Virus record (IMG/VR): IMGVR_UViG_2684622582_000007
Reading direction: 5' to 3' (one strand)
Length of the DNA: 26,595 nucleotides
DNA from: a virus
Taxonomy: Duplodnaviria > Heunggongvirae > Uroviricota > Caudoviricetes
The notes beneath the pieces are model-generated. The model made no database searches. It was given only the letters and a program-made list of their open reading frames with translations, and was not told the origin of the DNA. The position numbers were made by a program, and so were the translations under genes. Within the stretch, counting starts at the first letter, position 1. Each line of letters starts with the position of its first letter. Shown here one piece after another: positions 1 to 26,595 of the stretch.

Positions 1-234
1 ATGAAATCAAAAGACACCCTAAAGTGGTTCCCTGCGCAACTTCCTGAAGTAAGAATTATCCTAGGGGATGCTGTAGTGGAAGTAGCAAAACAGGGAAGAC
101 CTATCAATACCAGAACATTGCTTGATTACATTGAAGGAAACATAAAGAAAAAGTCATGGCTGGATAACAAAGAATTATTACAAACAGCGATATCAGTTCT
201 TAAAGACAACAAAAATTTAAATGGTAAAATGTAA
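1..234 (+). CDS. Hypothetical small protein (77 aa), function unknown
   Basis: ORF begins with ATG at window position 1 and ends with TAA at 232-234. It is AT-rich (about 40% GC), unlike the lambda-like late region. No motif recognised. It may be complete or the in-frame tail of a longer gene starting upstream of the window. Confidence 0.4.
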   Translation: MKSKDTLKWFPAQLPEVRIILGDAVVEVAKQGRPINTRTLLDYIEGNIKKKSWLDNKELLQTAISVLKDNKNLNGKM

Positions 235-463
235 TATAATAAACTTACTTTTTTATCATTTTTCCACTTTAACAACATTTTGCTCCACTTTTCCACGACC
301 AAACAACTTGAAATCTGGTTAAAATAACACGCAACACTATTCTTCTTCCTTGAGTCCGCCCGGAACTCGAAAAACAAACCGAGTTAAGGCCATTTTTCAC
401 AAAATCGATTTTGGGTCTCACCAAAATTACGGGATTGCATACGCATTCGTTTATTTTCGAACG

Positions 464-483
464 TGTACATACAAATATGTACA
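464..483. promoter_or_regulatory. Perfect 8-bp inverted repeat TGTACATA-CAAA-TATGTACA in the AT-rich region upstream of the recombinase gene; candidate operator or recombinase-binding site
   Basis: Palindrome read directly from sequence, about 70 bp upstream of the recombinase start at 553, inside a 320 bp AT-rich non-coding stretch. Confidence 0.3.
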
Positions 484-552
484 AAAATAATCAAAATTAT
501 TTTCTGAGATGCATTATGATATGTACACCAATTTCGTATAGAAGTTCTCACT

Positions 553-1143
553 ATGTCTCGAATTTATGCTTACTGTCGGGTATCAACTCTGGAACAGACA
601 ACCAAAAATCAACGTCGGGAAATCGAAAGTGCAGGTTTTAACATCAAATCTCAGCAAATAATTGAAGAACAAATTAGCGGCTCAGCAGCAACCAGTGAGC
701 GTCCTGGTTTTAACCAGTTGCTTGATCGACTGAAAAGAGGTGATGAATTGATTGTCACAAAACTGGATCGCCTCGGTTGTAATCCAATGGATATCAGTAA
801 AACGGTGGAACAACTGACCAAAGCAGGTATCAAAGTGCATTGCTTAGCATTGGGGGGCGTTGACCTGACCAGTCCACCTGGAAAAATGATGATGCAAGTA
901 ATTTCAGCAGTCGCTGAATTTGAGCGAGATCTTTTACTTGAGCGTACTCATTCAGGGATATTAAAAGCACGGGGCGCAGGAAAGCGATTTGGTCGCCCAC
1001 CTGTGTTAAATGATGAACAAATACAGAGGGTACTAGAGCAAATTAAGTCAGGTATAAATATAAGTGACATTGCCCAAGAATTCAAAACCTCGCGGCAAAC
1101 CATTTTAAGAGCTAAAGCAAAAAATCAGACACCTGATATATAA
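553..1143 (+). CDS. Serine site-specific recombinase, resolvase/invertase family (Pin/Gin/Hin-like)
   Basis: 196 aa. N-terminal YCRVSTLEQ with the catalytic serine in the conserved Y-x-R-V-S-T-x-x-Q context, KLDRLGCN motif, and a C-terminal helix-turn-helix ([17 protein letters not shown]). Position next to tail-fibre genes is typical for Pin-type invertases, but the sequence diverges from Gin/Pin. Confidence 0.85.
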
Positions 1144-1240
1144 AAATAATCTCGGTGTGAGATTCCTTACGTTTTCCAAGCCCCCCTTCCTAGCCTTAAA
1201 TGGAAAGATACCTCTAATTATAGAATTTATATATCTTACC

Positions 1241-1501
1241 CTACGGAAGGGCTGGCCATTCAATATCCGGTGCAGTTGATGTATCAACACGGTTCAGCAA
1301 CACCCGATATTTATTCCATGCCTCCAGCAACGATCTTTCTTCCTCCGTTGCGATTTCCAGATCTACAGCATCCTGCAGTGGCGCAATATACTCACTGAAT
1401 TCCTGGATGTAGAACTGTGTGGTGACGGTCTTCCAGCCATTCGGCTCCTGCTGTATCGAAGCATACCAGGCTATTTCAATATCGCTATGCTGCGGCAGCA
1501 T
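1241..1501 (-). pseudogene. Tail fibre assembly protein (tfa) 3' remnant
   Basis: The C-terminal 50 aa ([48 protein letters not shown]) are near-identical to the C-terminus of the full Tfa at 2281-2865. The N-terminal 36 aa are unrelated to Tfa and the ORF is only 86 aa. Confidence 0.55.
1250..1397. repeat. Direct repeat copy 1 (about 148 bp, about 90% identical to 2300-2447), derived from the 3' end of a tfa gene
   Basis: Aligned by eye: caatatccggtgcagttgatgtatcaacacggttcagcaacacccgata... at 1261 versus caatatcaggtgcagttgatgtatcaacacggttcagcaacacccgata... at 2311. Similarity stops near 1397 and 2447. Confidence 0.8.
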
Positions 1502-1557
1502 TTAACCCCTTGTAATTCATCGCCATAATTGATTTAATTCACAAATAAAACTATAAC

Positions 1558-2226
1558 ATGGTGAAATTAATGAAAAAAAACACAGATGATGGGGCTAAAA
1601 TTTACACACCACTTACCCTAAAGCTTTATGACTGGTGGGTTTTGGGAGTATCAAATCGGCTTGCATGGGGATGTCCTACAAAGGAACACCTTCTTCCACA
1701 CTTTCTGGAACATTTAGGTAACAACCATCTGGATATTGGTGTTGGAACTGGGTTTTACCTTACTCACGTACCTGAGAGTAGTCTGATATCTTTAATGGAT
1801 TTGAACGAAGCTAGCCTGAACGCGGCATCTACAAGGGCTGGGGAATCAAAAATTAAACATAAAATTAACCATGATGTTTTTGAACCTTATCCCGCGGCGT
1901 TACATGGTCAATTTGATTCCATTTCCATGTTTTACCTTCTTCACTGTCTGCCTGGAAATATATCTACAAAAAGCTGTGTAATACGCAATGCGGCGCAGGC
2001 CTTAACTGACGATGGAACTCTATACGGAGCCACAATTCTTGGCGATGGAGTTGTGCACAATAGCTTCGGCCAAAAACTGATGCGCATTTACAATCAGAAA
2101 GGCATCTTTTCAAACACAAAAGATTCCGAAGAAGGCTTAACACATATACTCTCAGAGCATTTCGAGAATGTTAAAACCAAGGTTCAAGGTACTGTAGTAA
2201 TGTTTTCTGCTTCAGGGAAAAAATAG
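1558..2226 (+). CDS. Class I SAM-dependent methyltransferase (orphan; substrate unknown; not a recognisable DNA methyltransferase)
   Basis: 222 aa with Rossmann motif I LDIGVGTGFY. No DPPY/NPPY or PC-ENV DNA-methyltransferase motifs seen. AT-rich, on the opposite strand to the flanking tail-fibre genes. The start may be the ATG at 1570 (MKKNTDD), which follows a GGTGA Shine-Dalgarno-like sequence. Confidence 0.8.
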   Translation: MVKLMKKNTDDGAKIYTPLTLKLYDWWVLGVSNRLAWGCPTKEHLLPHFLEHLGNNHLDIGVGTGFYLTHVPESSLISLMDLNEASLNAASTRAGESKIKHKINHDVFEPYPAALHGQFDSISMFYLLHCLPGNISTKSCVIRNAAQALTDDGTLYGATILGDGVVHNSFGQKLMRIYNQKGIFSNTKDSEEGLTHILSEHFENVKTKVQGTVVMFSASGKK

Positions 2227-2233
2227 CATCCAA

Positions 2234-2266
2234 CCGCAGCACGTTCTTGCTTAAGACGTGCTGCGG
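2234..2266. terminator. Stem-loop (11-bp perfect stem CCGCAGCACGT / ACGTGCTGCGG, 11-nt loop) between the convergent methyltransferase and tfa genes; possible bidirectional terminator or RNA-stabilising hairpin
   Basis: Inverted repeat read from sequence between the methyltransferase stop (2226) and tfa stop (2281). No U-tract on either strand, so intrinsic-terminator status is uncertain. Confidence 0.35.
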
Positions 2267-2280
2267 CATAATCCCAATGA

Positions 2281-2865
2281 TTACTCCCTGACAGGATTTG
2301 CAGGCCACTCAATATCAGGTGCAGTTGATGTATCAACACGGTTCAGCAACACCCGATACTTTTTCCAGGCTTCCAGCAATGAGGTTTCTTCCTCCGTTGC
2401 GATTTCCAGATCTACAGCATCCTGAAGTGGCGCAATATGCTCACTGGCTACCTGCATCAGGCTGTTTTTTGTTTCTTCCGCCTCCCGGATCCGGAACAGT
2501 TTTTCTGCTTCTGCATCTTTCACCCAGGCTGTGCCGTTCCACTTCTGAAACTCCCCTTCCGGCGATAACCAGGTAACATTTTCCGGTAACGGACCGAGTT
2601 CAGAAATAAATAACTCGTCCCCTGACGCTACGTCATAAACCGTTTTACCCCGATGGTCTTCAACGAGATGCCACGATGCCTCATCACTGTTGAAAACAGC
2701 CACAAAGCCAGCAGGAATATCTGGTGGTGCAATATCGGTACTGTTTGCTGGCAGACCTGTATGAGGCGGAATATATGCGTCACCTTCACCAATAAATTCA
2801 TTAGTTCCGGCCAGCAGATTATAAATTTTTATGGTCCGTGCTTGTTCACTCATTCTGAATGCCAT
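2281..2865 (-). CDS. tfa: Tail fibre assembly protein Tfa
   Basis: 194 aa, [39 protein letters not shown]..., recognised as lambda-type Tfa. Lies directly downstream of stf. Confidence 0.93.
2300..2447. repeat. Direct repeat copy 2 (inside the 3' end of the intact tfa gene)
   Basis: See copy 1 at 1250-1397. Confidence 0.8.
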
Positions 2866-5693
2866 TATGCAAGCCTCACAATATAGTTAAATGCGATGTT
2901 TTTGACGGTGTTTTCCGCGTTACCAGCAGCGTTAACGGTGATGGTGTGTCCATGTGAGCCAATCGCAACGGAGTGCGTATGAGCACCAATACCGACAGTA
3001 TGTGCGTGTGCACCTGCGCTTGCAGCAGTGCCGGACAGTGAGTGGGTATGCGCGCCAGCAGAGTTCGTATTCGCCATCGTGCCAATGCCCAGACCAACCG
3101 TCCCTTGTACCTGGTATGAGTTACTTCCGACAGCTGTAGAACCATACTGATAGGTGTCTTTAAAAGTGCTTGTATTAAACCTGCGACCATCAACGTGCGA
3201 GTGTGCTCCGGCCGAGCTTGTAGAGCCGCTCAGACTGTGCGTATGCGCCCCGGTGTTATTCGTGGATTTAGTGCCGTAATCAAACGACGATGTGGTTTTC
3301 GTACCCAAATCCGTACTGGATGCGCTGGCGCTGTGGGTGTGCGATTTAATGCCGTCCTGTTCCTGAGACAATACGGCACGACCACTGGCGGGCTTGCCCT
3401 TAATCGTCCAGCCACGCATATCAGGGATCACGCCTGACGGATAAGCGACTGCAAGTTTCGGGTAGGCAGATTTGTCAAAAGTCTGCCCCTGCATCAGGGC
3501 ATAACCAGACGGAACGGTATCCGATGGCCACGGGATTGGTGCGCCAGGCGGATAAAACTGCTCTGATGGCGTATAGAGTGAATAAACTGTACCGTCCGTT
3601 AACCCTTCCGGCTTATTAGCAGAATATGCTGGTGACGTATGAATCGTTACGCTGGCATTACTGGTATAATCCCATTGAATATTTACACCAGTCGCATAAT
3701 TTCCGATTGCAACGTAAATATCGTAAGTATCACCAGATGTATTGACCCAGGCAAAATTTGTAAACCCTGCCGATGTGCGCTGCCATAAAGCACCAGTAAT
3801 CCCCTTCGGATTACCATTACCTGCACGCAAAACAAGTTCAGATATACCTGCCTGTTGAGGTGATCCGACGTTATATCCAGCCCCACCAATCAACGTAATT
3901 GAAACAACAGAACTCGCCTGCGGCATGGTTACCGTTGCTAATTTGAACCAACCAGCACCACCGCTGAATGACATAGTTGTTGAGTTAAGCGTACCAATAT
4001 CTTTCGGTGTCAGTGTTATATCCGCTGAAAGCGCCTTACCATTCACCTTACGGGCAGAAGGTACCCGACCATTCGCATTGTCATTAGCTGCTTTCACTGC
4101 TTTCGATGTCGCAGCAAGCGTTTCAGATGCGCTGTTGGTTGCACTACTGAGCTGGACAATTCCTTTTTGTGCTGTCGTAGCGTCCTGAGCGGTATATTTC
4201 CCGTTAGCCAGGTCATACGCGGCCTTAACGGCTTTTGGCGTTGCCGCCTGTGACTCGGAAGTGCTGTTAGTCGCGCTGCTTAGCTGGACTATCCCCTTTT
4301 TCGTCGTGCTCGCATCCTCAAGCGCCACAGCGGATGCAATATCCTCTGCCCGTTTTGCTGCTGTCTCGGCGCGCGTTGCTGCGGATTCTGCCGTACTCTT
4401 GCTCTGTGCTGCCGCCGTCGCACTGCCAGCAGCCTCTGTTGCCTTCGTGGATGCCGTCGTGGCGCTGCCCTTCGCTGCTGACGCTTGTCTGGTCGCCTCA
4501 TCTTTTGAAGCAGACGCCGATGAGGCCGATGACGCCGCCGAACTGGCGGACGATGCGGCAGCCGTTTTTGAGGATTCTGCGCTGGTTTCCGACGCTTTCG
4601 CGTTCGTTTCGGATGTCTTCGCTGCGGAAGCTGACCTCGCTGCTGCGCTGGCCTGTTCAGTGGCTTCGCCAGCCTTCGTTGTGGCTGTTGAAGCGGATGA
4701 TGCGGCGCTTTCTGCCGATTTTCCGGCGGCGATGGCACTGGCTGAGGCCTGCCCGGCACTTGTTGACGCGGCACTGGCAGACGACGCAGCCGCTGTTTTT
4801 GAGCCTGCCGCAGCTGAGGCGCTCTGTCCCGCTGCCGTCTCAGAAGACCTGGCGTTCGTCTCGGACGTTTTTGCCGCCTTCGCGGAATTTGCTGCCGCCG
4901 TTGCCGAGGAAGCTGCGCTACTGGCGCTCGAGGATGCGTTCGTTTCTGATGATTTTGCCGCCTCTTTTGAAGCCGACGCATCCCGGGCTGAGGTGGCAGC
5001 TTCTGACGCTTTCGTAGTCGCGGTGGATGCAGAAGTGGCTGCTGATTGTTGTGACGCTGCAGCATTCGTTTCTGACGTTTTCGCGGCACTGGCACTGGTA
5101 GCTGCCGCGCTTTTTGAGGACTCTGCAGCGGCAGCACTTTTTTCCGCTTCAGTGGCCTTTGTTGATGCCGTTCCTGCGCTGGAAGACGCTGACTGAGCCG
5201 ACGAAGCGGCCTGTCCGGCTGACGTGCTGGCTGCGCGTGCTGAGCCTGCAGCATCAGTCGCATGGGTTGCCGCCTCACGGGCAGATGTACCGGCATCGCC
5301 GGCTGACTTCTTCGCGGCTGCCGTGTTCTGTGCCACCGCGGACGCGTTACGCGCCACCTCTTCCACCATCAGTTCAAAACGGCGCAGAGCCTCCGGACGG
5401 GCATCATCCTCCGTCATGGCACCGAGAAAATCATTCAGCGTACCGGGTCGGGAATCTTCATACACGGTGATGGTCCCGGCATGTGACGGCGGGAATCCTT
5501 CCACCAACAGAATAACGCTGTACTGACCGTACTCAACGTCCATGCTGTAACGCCCGGCTTCATCCGGATTTTCTGAGGCCAGCGTGTTCACCACCACCGC
5601 GGTGCTGTTACGTTTTGCTTTCAGCTGGATTGTGCAGTTCTGTACCGGTTTTCCTGTGCCGTCTTTCAGTACACCTGAAATCTTTACTGCCAT
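2865..5693 (-). CDS. stf: Side tail fibre protein Stf
   Basis: N-terminus [31 protein letters not shown]... matches lambda Stf. Long Ala/Ser/Thr-rich low-complexity region, then a C-terminal distal domain with His-rich GAHxHS repeats. The ATG at 5693 is preferred over the upstream GTG at 5699 and keeps the 64-nt lom-stf spacing seen in lambda. Confidence 0.9.
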
Positions 5694-24631: not shown

Positions 24632-25151
24632 TCAGCAACCCCGGTATCAGTTCATCCAGCGCGGCTGCTTTGTTCATGGCTTTGATGATATCCCGTTTCA
24701 GGAAATCAACATGTCGGTTTTCCAGTTCCGGAAAACGCCGCTGCACCGACAGGGGGATCCCGTCGAGAATACTGGCAATTTCACCTGCGATCCGCGACAG
24801 CACGAAAGTACAGAATGCGGTTTCCACCACTTCAGCGGAGTCTCTGGCATTTTTCAGCTCCTGTGCGTCGGCCTGCGCACGCGTAAGTCGATGGCGTTCG
24901 TACTCAATAGTCCCTGGCTGGAGATCTGTCTCGCTGGCCTGCCGCAGTTCTTCAACTTCCCGGCGCAGCTTTTCGTTCTCAATTTCAGCATCCCTTTCGG
25001 CATACCATTTTATAACGGCGGCAGAGTCATAAAGCACCTCATTACCCTTGCCACCGCCTCGCAGAACGGGCATTCCCTGCTCCTGCCAGTTCTGAATGGT
25101 ACGGATACTCGCGCCGAAAATGTCAGCCAGCTGCTTTTTGTTGACTTCCAT
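24606..25151 (-). CDS. Nu1: Terminase small subunit Nu1
   Basis: 181 aa, MEVNKKQLADIFGASIRTIQNWQEQGMPVLRGGGKGNEVLYDSAAVIKWYAERDAEIENEKLRREVEELRQ..., essentially lambda gpNu1. Lies directly downstream of cos. Confidence 0.97.
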
Positions 25152-25328
25152 TGTTCATTCCACGGACAAAAACAGAGAAAGGAAACGACAGAGGCCAAAA
25201 AGCTCGCTTTCAGCACCTGTCGTTTCCTTTCTTTTCAGGGGGTATTTTAAATAAAAACATTAAGTTACGACGAAGAAGAACGGAAACGCCTTAAACCGGA
25301 AAATTTTCATAAATAGCGAAAACCCGCG
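25152..25328 (-). other. cosB region (terminase small-subunit and IHF binding region between cosN and Nu1)
   Basis: Positional: the interval between cosN and the Nu1 start. Its reverse complement reads like the lambda left-end leader (CGCGGGTTTTCGCTATTTATGAAAATTTTCCGGTTTAAGGCG...). Individual R and I elements were not mapped. Confidence 0.7.
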
Positions 25329-25340
25329 AGGTCGCCGCCC
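25329..25340 (-). other. cosN, the 12-nt cohesive-end sequence (GGGCGGCGACCT on the minus strand)
   Basis: Exact match on the plus strand as AGGTCGCCGCCC, flanked by CGCGGGTTTT on the Nu1 side and CGTAACCTGTCGGATC on the other side (minus-strand reading), as at the lambda cos junction. Confidence 0.9.
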
Positions 25341-25589
25341 CGTAACCTGTCGGATCGCTGGAAAGGACCCAACAAATGAGAATGATTATCACTTGCGTTA
25401 ATATCCTGTTTCTTCCACCCTCGCACAGGACTGGCGAGCATGAGGGACAAACCCGCGAATCATTAGCGCGGTAAAAACCCGGTGTGCATCGTTTTTGATT
25501 ATTCCCGCACACTCGCGCAGAAGGAGTTCCCCGTCGGGCTGTGGTCTCTGTTAATGCAGGAATACGGCGACGATACAGCGCATGATGTG

Positions 25590-26207
25590 TCAGGCTTGAA
25601 TACCTTTATCGAATCCCGGTAATAAAAACTGTCCTTGTCTCTCCAGACGTTCCAGCTTTGCAAGCAATTGAGGTTTTTTCGTTCTCCCCCAGCGATTGAG
25701 CAGACGGCCTGACATGCTGGCGACATCCTTCTCTTTCATGTACTCCAGCATTACGGCGTTACGTTCTGCTTCATAACTTTCACTGTACTTACGGAGTTCT
25801 GCTGACATCCAGTTAAAGGCATTGATATAGGCTTCTTTAATAGCATCGGCTTTTGCCCCGTTAAATCCCATCACCAGCATAACGAAGCCGCTAAAATCCA
25901 TGCAGTAGTAAATCTGCTTCTTGTCAAAAATCCCTAAGTCATTGATTTTCTCGACGGCCCAAAAATGGGTTGTCAAGAACTCCTCAGAACATCTCAAACA
26001 TTTAATAGCCCTAATCACATGCTGATGGCGTTTACCAAATGCCTTGGCAATCTGGAAGGTGTCAGTTACCGGTTGACCTTCTGCTGCGGTAACTAACTGG
26101 CGAAAGTCGAAGTCATGATTCGTAATTAATTCATTCATGGCGTTGCCTGCTTCTTTGAAATGAACCTTTGCCGCACAGGAAACCAGCCCACCGAGGCTCG
26201 CCAGCAC
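25590..26207 (-). CDS. Rha-family phage regulatory protein (putative antirepressor-type regulator), located between the lysis genes and cos
   Basis: N-terminal segment VTDTFQIAKAFGKRHQHVIRAIKCL resembles the Rha N-terminal domain signature. The more likely start is the ATG at 26138 (MNELITNHDF...); the ORF track extends it to 26207. Confidence 0.55.
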   Translation of the reverse strand: MLASLGGLVSCAAKVHFKEAGNAMNELITNHDFDFRQLVTAAEGQPVTDTFQIAKAFGKRHQHVIRAIKCLRCSEEFLTTHFWAVEKINDLGIFDKKQIYYCMDFSGFVMLVMGFNGAKADAIKEAYINAFNWMSAELRKYSESYEAERNAVMLEYMKEKDVASMSGRLLNRWGRTKKPQLLAKLERLERQGQFLLPGFDKGIQA

Positions 26208-26291
26208 TAACTGGTATCCTCAAAGGCCCATTCCAAAAGGGCAGGTTCGGTGTTTATTGTGCGCTGCGGTGCGCGGTGAAATACCGGTACA

Positions 26292-26318
26292 AAAATGCCC
26301 CGCATCTGCGAGGCATTT
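26292..26318 (-). terminator. Intrinsic terminator-like hairpin downstream of Rz/Rz1
   Basis: Minus strand reads AAAATGCCTCGCAGATGCGGGGCATTTTT: a GC-rich imperfect stem followed by U5, about 40 nt after the Rz stop. Confidence 0.5.
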
Positions 26319-26356
26319 TCCTGAAAGTCACTTGTTAAATTTCAGTGAAATTAAAA

Positions 26357-26595
26357 TTATTTTAAGCATTGCGTCCTGATGTACTCCTGCAGGTAGTTAA
26401 CCTGCGCGGTTATCTTGTCGATTCCACTTCGGAGACGGTAATAATTGAGTTCAGCATCTGCTGTAAGTCTTGGGCTTTCTCCATCGCCCATGCTGCTGGC
26501 TCCGGTCGTTGACTTTGCACAGGTGGCGGCGACTTGCAGGCGCTTACGACCAGCAGAAACATCAGCACGGAGACTTTCGATAGTCGCGTTAGCAT
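26357..26595 (-). CDS. Rz: Spanin inner-membrane subunit Rz (i-spanin), 3' part only; the 5' end lies beyond the window
   Basis: My translation of the minus strand gives ANATIESLRADVSAGRKRLQVAATCAKSTT...SPRLTADAELNYYRLRSGIDKITAQVNYLQEYIRTQCLK, homologous to the lambda Rz C-terminus but not identical. Stop TAA at 26357-26359. Confidence 0.85.
   Translation of the reverse strand, partial: ANATIESLRADVSAGRKRLQVAATCAKSTTGASSMGDGESPRLTADAELNYYRLRSGIDKITAQVNYLQEYIRTQCLK
26410..26595 (-). CDS. Rz1: Spanin outer-membrane lipoprotein subunit Rz1 (o-spanin), embedded in the +1 frame of Rz
   Basis: 61 aa, MLTRLSKVSVLMFLLVVSACKSPPP...PEPAAWAME...: lipoprotein signal with lipobox Cys followed by a Pro-rich segment, fully nested in Rz as in lambda. 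The start codon is the last three bases of the window. Confidence 0.8.
   Translation of the reverse strand: MLTRLSKVSVLMFLLVVSACKSPPPVQSQRPEPAAWAMEKAQDLQQMLNSIITVSEVESTR

Follow-up and report, generated by a model that had tools for sequence, protein, structure and literature searches.

In phage P22, rha (orf201) is a late operon gene that is detrimental to lytic growth when IHF is missing (PMC4936722, summarising Mozola and Friedman 1985 and Henthorn and Friedman 1995). The phi80 record carries the note 'DNA synthesis inhibition in IHF- hosts' on its own rha gene, and inhibition of phage growth and DNA synthesis in IHF-deficient hosts is the only recorded Rha phenotype that was found (PMC4936722; phi80 record). 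Rha belongs to the 'Bro network', a set of DNA-binding regulators of phages that swap domains (network concept: PMC10111431), and its Phage_pRha domain is a winged helix according to the literature. The DNA analysed here, referred to as the window, is a stretch of 26,595 nucleotides (nt) from a virus of the Caudoviricetes (IMG/VR record IMGVR_UViG_2684622582_000007) with a rha gene between the lysis genes Rz/Rz1 and cos. Directly in front of this gene lies a structured RNA leader which is apparently undescribed, is of a known general kind and is strongly supported by comparison of homologous sequences; the same comparison corrects rha's start codon. The late operon is lambda-like and is encoded on the minus strand of the window, where the order is Rz/Rz1, terminator hairpin, spacer, leader, rha, non-coding DNA, cosN, Nu1 and A.

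The leader RNA and the start of rha

The leader is predicted to consist of the following elements, in which SD stands for the Shine-Dalgarno sequence.

26274-26139, minus strand: rha leader, ~135 nt (covariance-model match 26279-26127, 147 bits)
26274-26261, minus strand: P0 hairpin, GCGC-ACCGCA-GCGC (family form GCGC-N6-7-GCGC)
26260-26139, minus strand: remaining leader, which opens with an A-rich linker
26269-26265 with 26175-26171, minus strand: pseudoknot, P0 loop CCGCA paired with UGCGG
26245-26241 with 26150-26146, minus strand: SD helix, anti-SD CCUGC paired with the SD region GCAGG
26238-26229 with 26162-26153, minus strand: helix P1a
26228-26221 with 26170-26163, minus strand: helix P1
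26215-26211 with 26186-26182, minus strand: helix P2
26205-26196, minus strand: hairpin P3

The upstream regions of 80 IMG/VR homologues, whose proteins are 75-97% identical, were aligned. The conservation of the ~135 nt before ATG 26138 is structure-like and not coding-like. A covariance model was built from 30 leaders and rebuilt from 56, and the pseudoknot was never included in it. The model places the leader directly in front of the start codon in 57 loci, some of which encode Rha proteins only 34-37% identical to that of the window. In the alignment of 57 sequences, compensatory two-sided changes are found at 33 of the 38 base pairs, and the paired fraction of cells is 90.5%, against 72.6% for shuffles. 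For covariation the alignment scores 0.513 and shuffles score 0.195, with none of 500 reaching the observed value, and controls with slid partners score at most 0.108. The pseudoknot changes on both sides at all five pairs, with 89.7% of cells paired, and its variants include CCGCA/UGCGG, UUCUC/GAGAA, CUCAC/GUGAG, UGCCC/GGGCA and UUCCG/CGGAA. G-U pairs are frequent, which fits transcription of the rha sense strand and indicates that this strand is the folding one.

In the predicted fold, the 3' portion of the linker and the sequence immediately preceding the ATG, SD included, pair to form a long stem. This stem of ~23 bp consists of the SD helix, P1a and P1, P2 and P3 are apical, and the P0 loop pairs with the internal loop that separates P2 from P1, on its 3' strand. 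The minimum-energy fold of the window sequence alone reproduces the long stem with GCAGG paired to CCUGC, and the outer part of the stem contributes -17 kcal/mol. The SD region pairs with the linker in each homologue, with compensatory combinations such as CCUAU/AUAGG, UCUCU/AGAGG and UCUUA/UAAGG, and the linker-SD duplex has an energy of -11.1 kcal/mol for cognate and -8.2 kcal/mol for non-cognate partners. The leader thus has a covarying structure, a fixed distance to the start codon and an SD within a helix, as is expected of a cis-regulatory leader that sequesters the SD. Two further elements were considered and rejected. A leader peptide of three codons (AUG-GGC-CUU-UGA) occurs in the P22-like group only and is not conserved, and an anti-anti-SD pairing between CAUUUCA of the spacer and UGGAAUG of the linker shows no covariation in other homologues.

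The structure overlaps the annotated 5' end of the gene, which is given here from the ATG that the homologues share.

26138-25590, minus strand: rha, 182 amino acids from ATG 26138; Phage_pRha domain at the N-terminus, ORF11CD3 domain at the C-terminus

The annotated start is GTG 26207, inside the leader RNA, which results in a protein of 205 amino acids. This start is used by the Prokaryotic Genome Annotation Pipeline (PGAP; WP_000881326.1) and for P22 ORF201. If the region upstream of ATG 26138 were coding and Rha began at the GTG, there would be no RNA element. Indeed, no stop interrupts the frame over the 69 nt that precede the ATG, both in the window and in P22-like sequences, and GAGGA is found 9 nt before the GTG. 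However, nine distinct homologues (L052, L053, L068, L070, L074, L077, L079, L084 and L086) have a stop in frame at 9-15 nt upstream of the ATG, and two of these (L052 and L053) carry the stop although their leader is otherwise P22-like. The changes seen in the region are compensatory substitutions at paired positions and indels whose length is no multiple of three, which is not a codon pattern. The PHROG 518 profile starts at residue 23 of the 205-residue open reading frame (ORF) and most homologous proteins begin at the ATG. The annotated phi80 start (PHI80_62) likewise lies 36 nt inside the leader (L132:3740-3775). It is therefore extremely unlikely that the region is coding. The conserved ATG 26138 is preceded in all homologues by an AGG/AAGG/GGAG motif (the SD) 7-10 nt upstream; since this arrangement is universal and upstream in-frame stops occur, the 23-codon GTG extension is not conserved as coding sequence. 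Judged by these alignments, ATG 26138 is the conserved rha start. The corresponding extension of P22 rha into the leader is at L001:2214-2282, equivalent to 26139-26207 of the window. The correction concerns an annotation that has been widely propagated through P22 ORF201, phi80 rha and the 205-residue PGAP 'Rha family transcriptional regulator'.

Leader-like sequence also overlaps the annotated 5' ends of genes for a 'KilA-N domain-containing protein' in E. coli O157:H7, for example at NZ_CP017446.1 1972032-1972151, and likewise in phage PhiR49_1 (PV340568.1 15305-15478). These copies are 84-95% identical to the core of the window leader. The same misannotation of the start codon probably affects those KilA-N genes.

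The leader does not correspond to a catalogued RNA family. In Rfam 15 no family matches 26139-26279 at E<=10, and seven loci holding nine leader copies gave no Rfam match at E<=0.1. The Rfam models of C4 antisense RNA and isrK have no detectable similarity to the leader, and those of known riboswitches and ribozymes do not match it. Hammerhead, HDV-like and pistol ribozymes and the ZTP riboswitch were rejected as candidates, since the order of their helices differs and their Rfam models are without a match. No described RNA motif upstream of rha or antirepressor genes was found in the literature covered, which did not include Henthorn and Friedman 1995, a paper that may map promoters or regulatory sites in this region.

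The P22-type leader is present in 947 of 5426 complete E. coli genomes, and the leader of phi80 rha scores 126.9 bits. Matches in the genome collection come from Scandinavium, Mixta, Erwinia, Trabulsiella, Rouxiella, Enterobacter, Rosenbergiella, Gilliamella, Raoultella, Providencia, Yersinia and Halomonas. With a single exception in phi80, the gene behind the leader is a member of the Bro network, namely Rha with or without ORF11CD3, Rha with ANT, P22_AR_N-ORF11CD3 or KilA-N, the last of these in E. coli O157:H7. The exception is a second leader copy (L132:5237-5364), which is without P3 and precedes an ORF with no clear domain. Two copies in one late region are also found in the Stx2a phage P14437, where one (L130:2000-2151) is before 'ant' (P22_AR_N and ORF11CD3) in the lysis cassette and the other (L130:3364-3512) is before the Rha homologue after Rz. 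L096 carries two as well, at 1000-1144 and 1863-2010. The pseudoknot sequence differs between the copies of one genome: UCUCAC and UCGCAC in phi80, UCACAC and CGCAC in P14437, and UGCCC and CCGC in L096. Such differences would suit copy-specific control, but three cases prove nothing.

A pseudoknot and several conserved unpaired positions (GAG in J1/2, the GGCG loop, GGGC and CUG) would also be expected if the leader were a riboswitch or a protein-binding sensor, in which a ligand or Rha itself binds the pseudoknotted P2/P3 core and sets the accessibility of the SD. The strict linkage to one functional class of gene (Rha, KilA-N and P22_AR_N) would suit autoregulation. However, the SD helix, P1a and P1 form a stem that is long and stable alone, with no evident ligand-free open state. 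An alternative conserved pairing was not found by inspection and no known riboswitch class matches, so a sensor function is very unlikely.

Transcription, the P22F fragment and proposed gating of rha

Two further conserved parts lie between Rz and the leader.

26320-26291, minus strand: intrinsic-terminator-type hairpin with arms 26320-26308 and 26303-26291, a 13-bp stem and a 4-nt loop, AGAU
26290-26275, minus strand: conserved 16-nt spacer GUACCGGUAUUUCACC (family consensus approximately RTRYCYGCAWTTCACC, from the upstream-region alignment)

A sequence-only reading of this interval had noticed a strong terminator-like hairpin at 26292-26318, which is essentially right, and had missed the conserved RNA leader between the hairpin and rha. 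The stem-loop is G+C-rich and is followed immediately on the transcribed strand by UUUUUGU, a U5 tract and then GU, as in an intrinsic terminator. Its folding energy is -20.1 kcal/mol on the minus strand and -14.6 kcal/mol on the plus strand; in a 76-nt context the z-score is -3.95 and none of 200 shuffles is equally stable. Rfam matches of the hairpin are partial and involve nothing but the terminator parts of other families. The phi80, ES18 and Emek records annotate a terminator at the homologous site. Of 50 distinct homologous loci, 43 have a G+C-rich hairpin with a T-run no more than 70 nt before the leader; it ends a median of 18 nt before P0 and is followed by a conserved spacer. The stem sequences vary between loci despite this conserved position. 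From its placement, the terminator is the first part of a conserved module.

Two minor features were noted nearby. A weaker second stem-loop, CUGAAAUUUAACAAGUGACUUUCAG, lies just upstream of the terminator at 26321-26345 and is conserved in P22-like sequences only. In L065 the functional leader is preceded, at ~2270-2310, by ttttatatctgcatttcaccgcgtgcaaataaac, which is a second, partial and degenerate version of the spacer and P0 region and suggests a past tandem duplication or recombination between modules.

No sigma-70-like promoter was detected on either strand of 25100-26595, and by eye the spacer contains no hexamer with the key -10 positions. Since no promoter was found for rha, the late transcript is the most likely route of expression. 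In agreement with a late operon gene, rha directly follows Rz/Rz1 in the same orientation and is syntenic with P22 and phi80, and it is co-oriented with the late operon in every locus examined. Besides Rz in many phages, the module is found behind tail-fibre, virion-morphogenesis, DUF6246 and Tad2-like genes. The variety of these neighbours indicates that terminator, leader and gene move as a unit.

Insertion behind different late genes in different phages (Rz, tail fibre, virion morphogenesis, Tad2-like) is also what would be seen if rha were a lysogen-expressed moron like lambda bor, with its own prophage promoter and an influence on immunity or superinfection, while the hairpin simply ends the lysis cassette. 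The slot is a moron site in lambda, where it holds bor, and PHROG neighbours of the protein are labelled 'anti-repressor'. A moron has its own promoter upstream and a terminator downstream of the gene; here the terminator is upstream of rha instead, only 16 nt from the RNA element. The missing promoter and the constant orientation also speak against a moron, as do the ribosome-binding site buried in the predicted fold and the literature, which describes a late operon gene with a known effect on lytic growth in IHF-deficient hosts. The probability that rha is such a moron is therefore very small. A role in superinfection or lysogeny decisions, which the sequence-only reading had raised, finds no support, and the recorded phenotype is the inhibition described above.

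Transcription of the leader region is documented in P22. An 89-nt small RNA, 'P22F', was sequenced from P22-infected cells, checked by reverse-transcription PCR and reported in 2026 (PMC13397905). The authors state that P22F partially overlaps ORF201 and has no known function, and liken its predicted hairpin-rich fold to sar RNA; they present neither a comparative or covariation model nor a connection to the ribosome-binding site of rha (PMC13397905). P22F corresponds to ~26232-26144 of the window, from inside P1a to just before the ATG. Since P22F was sequenced, the leader region is transcribed and yields a stable fragment.

The leader could be mainly the source of a free-standing, trans-acting small RNA similar to P1/P7 c4 RNA or P4 CI RNA and directed at host or phage targets or at sister leaders; the P0 loop (L) and its partner (L') would then be an antisense specificity pair instead of a cis pseudoknot. 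P22F is abundant and discrete in the small-RNA sequencing, and processed leader RNAs control other Bro-network genes, P1 ant and P4 eta (PMC10111431). The L/L' sequences are highly diverse and differ between copies within phi80, P14437 and L096. However, P22F does not contain P0 and L, the supposed antisense loop, and the element is always at a fixed distance from the start codon and includes the SD. P1, P2 and P3 are as variable as the pseudoknot, so drift is sufficient to account for the diversity, and the lack of similarity to the Rfam C4 and isrK models also argues against an antisense RNA. A mainly trans-acting function is therefore unlikely.

Taken together, the interval is likely a P22/phi80-type accessory module of terminator, structured leader and rha that was recombined at cos onto a lambda-type packaging/head arm, and in which expression of rha is gated twice. 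At the first gate, ordinary RNA polymerase coming from the lysis genes would be stopped at the hairpin, and only polymerase modified by the late antiterminator would read through. At the second gate, the long stem, capped by P2/P3 and locked by the pseudoknot, would bury the SD; since the SD is buried in the predicted fold, the default state of translation would be off. A further event would then have to free the ribosome-binding site; candidates are an endonucleolytic cut that takes away the anti-SD strand, and an RNA or protein acting in trans. Cleavage at the 5' end of P22F is one option, as it would remove the anti-SD strand in the manner of type I toxin mRNAs.

Several observations weigh against a doubly gated module. 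The 5' end of P22F falls within P1a, and the leader may therefore not stay in one piece. The z-score of the single-sequence leader is modest (-1.81), and the structural support rests on the comparison of homologues. The RNA model does not account for the conserved 16-nt spacer or for the near-invariant GCGC...GCGC of P0, which could be a site at the DNA level. In addition, the model does not explain the published link between rha and IHF. The IHF pattern WATCARNNNNTTR has one match in the whole window, at 25947-25935 in the rha coding region, which is at chance level (76 of 100 shuffles have at least one), and no consistent IHF-like site was seen by eye in the leaders.

A wider interpretation is possible but tentative. 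The terminator, spacer and pseudoknotted leader may together represent an unrecognised class of regulatory RNA that gates Bro-network genes (Rha, KilA-N and P22_AR_N with ORF11CD3) within late operons of temperate phages of enterobacteria, among them P22, phi80 and the Shiga-toxin (Stx) phages. The loop/target pairs would be specific to each copy, and the leader would open on a defined cue, which may be RNase processing, a phage or host factor, or possibly a host state linked to IHF. If true, this would explain the 40-year-old Rha phenotype at the level of RNA. The RNA element defined by the analysis covaries strongly and is carried by Stx phages and by ~950 of the 5426 complete E. coli genomes; the leader provides a concrete, mutable handle on the silencing of rha-type genes, on their harm in IHF-deficient hosts and on the nature of P22F.

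The Rz-cos interval and the mosaic joint

The identity of the gene is well supported by profile searches. The ORF matches Phage_pRha (PF09669) at 2.7e-20 (73.2 bits, cut-off 29.9), TIGR02681 at 6e-20 (71.3 bits, cut-off 45.95) and PHROG 518 at 3e-86. The ORF11CD3 profile (PF10549) matches at 4.6e-23 (81.6 bits, cut-off 25), with profile positions 1-54 of 54 aligned to residues 144-197 of the 205-residue ORF. These matches agree with the proposal in the sequence-only reading of a Rha-family ORF co-oriented with the late operon; the Bro-N similarity it considered was not seen, as Bro-N (PF02498) is absent from the Pfam matches of the ORF at E<=0.1. A PDB sequence search with the Rha protein profile returned no match (best E 0.92). 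The protein is 83% identical to P22 Rha and 36% identical to phi80 Rha.

The position of the gene is equally familiar. Among phages, P22 and its relatives match the interval best. P22 rha (ORF201) is directly after gene 15/Rz1, and the window from 26595 to 25669 is 91.3% identical in DNA to P22 gene 15/Rz1/rha, with 95.7% in the intergenic part. In the phi80 record the order is holin, lysozyme, Rz/Rz1, annotated terminator, rha, a few ORFs, cosQ and cos. The Rz-rha-cos-Nu1 arrangement also occurs in phage IdasGreatGrand and in 278 of 5426 complete E. coli genomes. Phage P14437 has its Rha homologue, 55% identical, between Rz and terS, and by tblastn 112 Stx2a-phage records contain homologues. 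The sequence-only reading had called it unusual for a Rha-like regulator to be expressed from the late transcript; P22, phi80, IdasGreatGrand, P14437 and the E. coli genomes show that this is the archetypal site. By synteny, the gene and its Rz-cos position are already known and correspond to the founding P22/phi80 rha locus at its usual late-operon site, and its presence there is ordinary lambdoid mosaicism.

The features on the two sides of the module are as follows.

26357-26595, minus strand: Rz of the P22 gene 15 type, 3' part, truncated where the window ends; stop codon at 26359-26357
26595-26410, minus strand: Rz1 lipoprotein gene, embedded in Rz (Pfam Rz1 2.2e-20)
25589-25341, minus strand: non-coding stretch from rha to cosN, 249 bp
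25340-25329, minus strand: cosN cohesive-end sequence GGGCGGCGACCT, read directly from the sequence
25151-24606, minus strand: Nu1 (Pfam Phage_Nu1 3.9e-101), 98.9% amino acid identity to lambda
24631-22706, minus strand: A (terminase), 99.5% amino acid identity to lambda

Given the positions of the Rz stop codon and of cosN, 25341-26356 spans exactly the interval from cosN to the Rz stop. The 78 C-terminal residues of Rz are 92.3% identical to P22 gp15, 91.0% to phi80 Rz and 39.7% to lambda Rz, and Rz1 is 95% identical to P22 Rz1 and 39.7% to lambda Rz1; blastn finds no lambda match for the Rz/Rz1 DNA. On the other side of the interval, blastn aligns lambda 1-3000 to 25340->22342 with 97.9% identity, and the high identity to lambda starts at cosN. 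The contrast between a divergent Rz/Rz1 pair and near-identical Nu1 and A, and the mosaic joint near cos that the sequence-only reading drew from it, are thus borne out.

Little of lambda extends past the joint. The 51 bp containing cosQ (25391-25341) is 86.3% identical to the right end of lambda, and beyond it the sole blastn match is a 108-bp patch at 25582-25475, 82.6% identical to lambda 46868-46974. The lambda counterpart of the patch is non-coding DNA between bor and lambdap78. DNA similarity to lambda 46428-48451, which holds bor, lambdap78 and lambdap79, gave no bor match in the Rz-cos interval, and of this lambda-type content the non-coding patch alone matches. The interval is therefore not lambda-like and lacks bor, as had been proposed. 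The patch is probably a relic of an earlier lambda-type occupant of the slot. The rest of the window is a lambda-like head/tail arm that is 96-97% identical to several E. coli phages and is shared with them from cosQ onward only. By alignment, the window is a case of known mosaicism, in which a P22/phi80-type lysis-rha segment is joined at cos to a lambda-type structural arm.

Other E. coli prophages of the Rz-rha-cos layout have 52 or 335 bp of extra DNA between the equivalents of 25405 and 25370/25391. The 335-bp insert (L004:4013-4362) carries a ylcI/ynfO-family gene on the opposite strand, and the 52-bp form was compared at L003:5015-5102. Among these aligned forms, that of the window is the shortest and the region 25370-25405 is an indel hot spot just inside cosQ. 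Upstream of Nu1, the cosB region contains an inverted repeat (25170-25237) with weak Rfam matches of a microRNA-like kind on both strands (E 0.13-0.96); a self-inverted match of 58 bp is found at the repeat and nothing else was seen there. Since the repeat falls within the DNA with 97.9% identity to lambda, it probably belongs to lambda cosB and is not an RNA gene.

Comparison with known systems

The rha genes of P22 and phi80, the founding members of Phage_pRha, a family named after them, share with the window the family, the position after Rz/Rz1, the upstream terminator and the leader. The last ~26 residues of Rha and everything beyond them differ from P22, with homology ending at 25669. 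The window module abuts the lambda cos/Nu1/A arm, whereas P22 has its pac/gene 3 region there and phi80 its own cos.

A structured 5'-leader RNA is likewise combined with an antirepressor-like gene in the systems most similar in kind, the P1/P7 c4 RNA-icd-ant, P4 CI RNA-eta/kil and Gifsy-1 IsrK-orf45-anrP systems (PMC10111431, PMC13397905). These leaders and that of the window are alike in having a hairpin loop complementary to a downstream site near the ribosome-binding region. The window leader differs from these in sequence, in having a single complementary pair and not a/b double sites, and in its long SD-burying stem and pseudoknot. It is also part of a late operon and not of an immunity region, and its processing into a repressor RNA would be a conjecture.

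The leader may also be compared with type I toxin mRNAs. In the primary transcripts of hok, tisB, zorO and dinQ, long-range pairing hides the SD, and the mRNA is activated by 5' processing. By analogy, rha would share the burial of the SD and a harmful product, and the 5' end of P22F would remove the anti-SD strand similarly. The product of rha is a DNA-binding regulator, whereas type I toxins are membrane peptides; rha is not known to have an antitoxin RNA, and its activation by processing is only proposed. Finally, lambda bor (46459-46752) is non-essential accessory DNA in the same Rz-cos slot; bor is transcribed against the late operon, whereas rha is transcribed along it.

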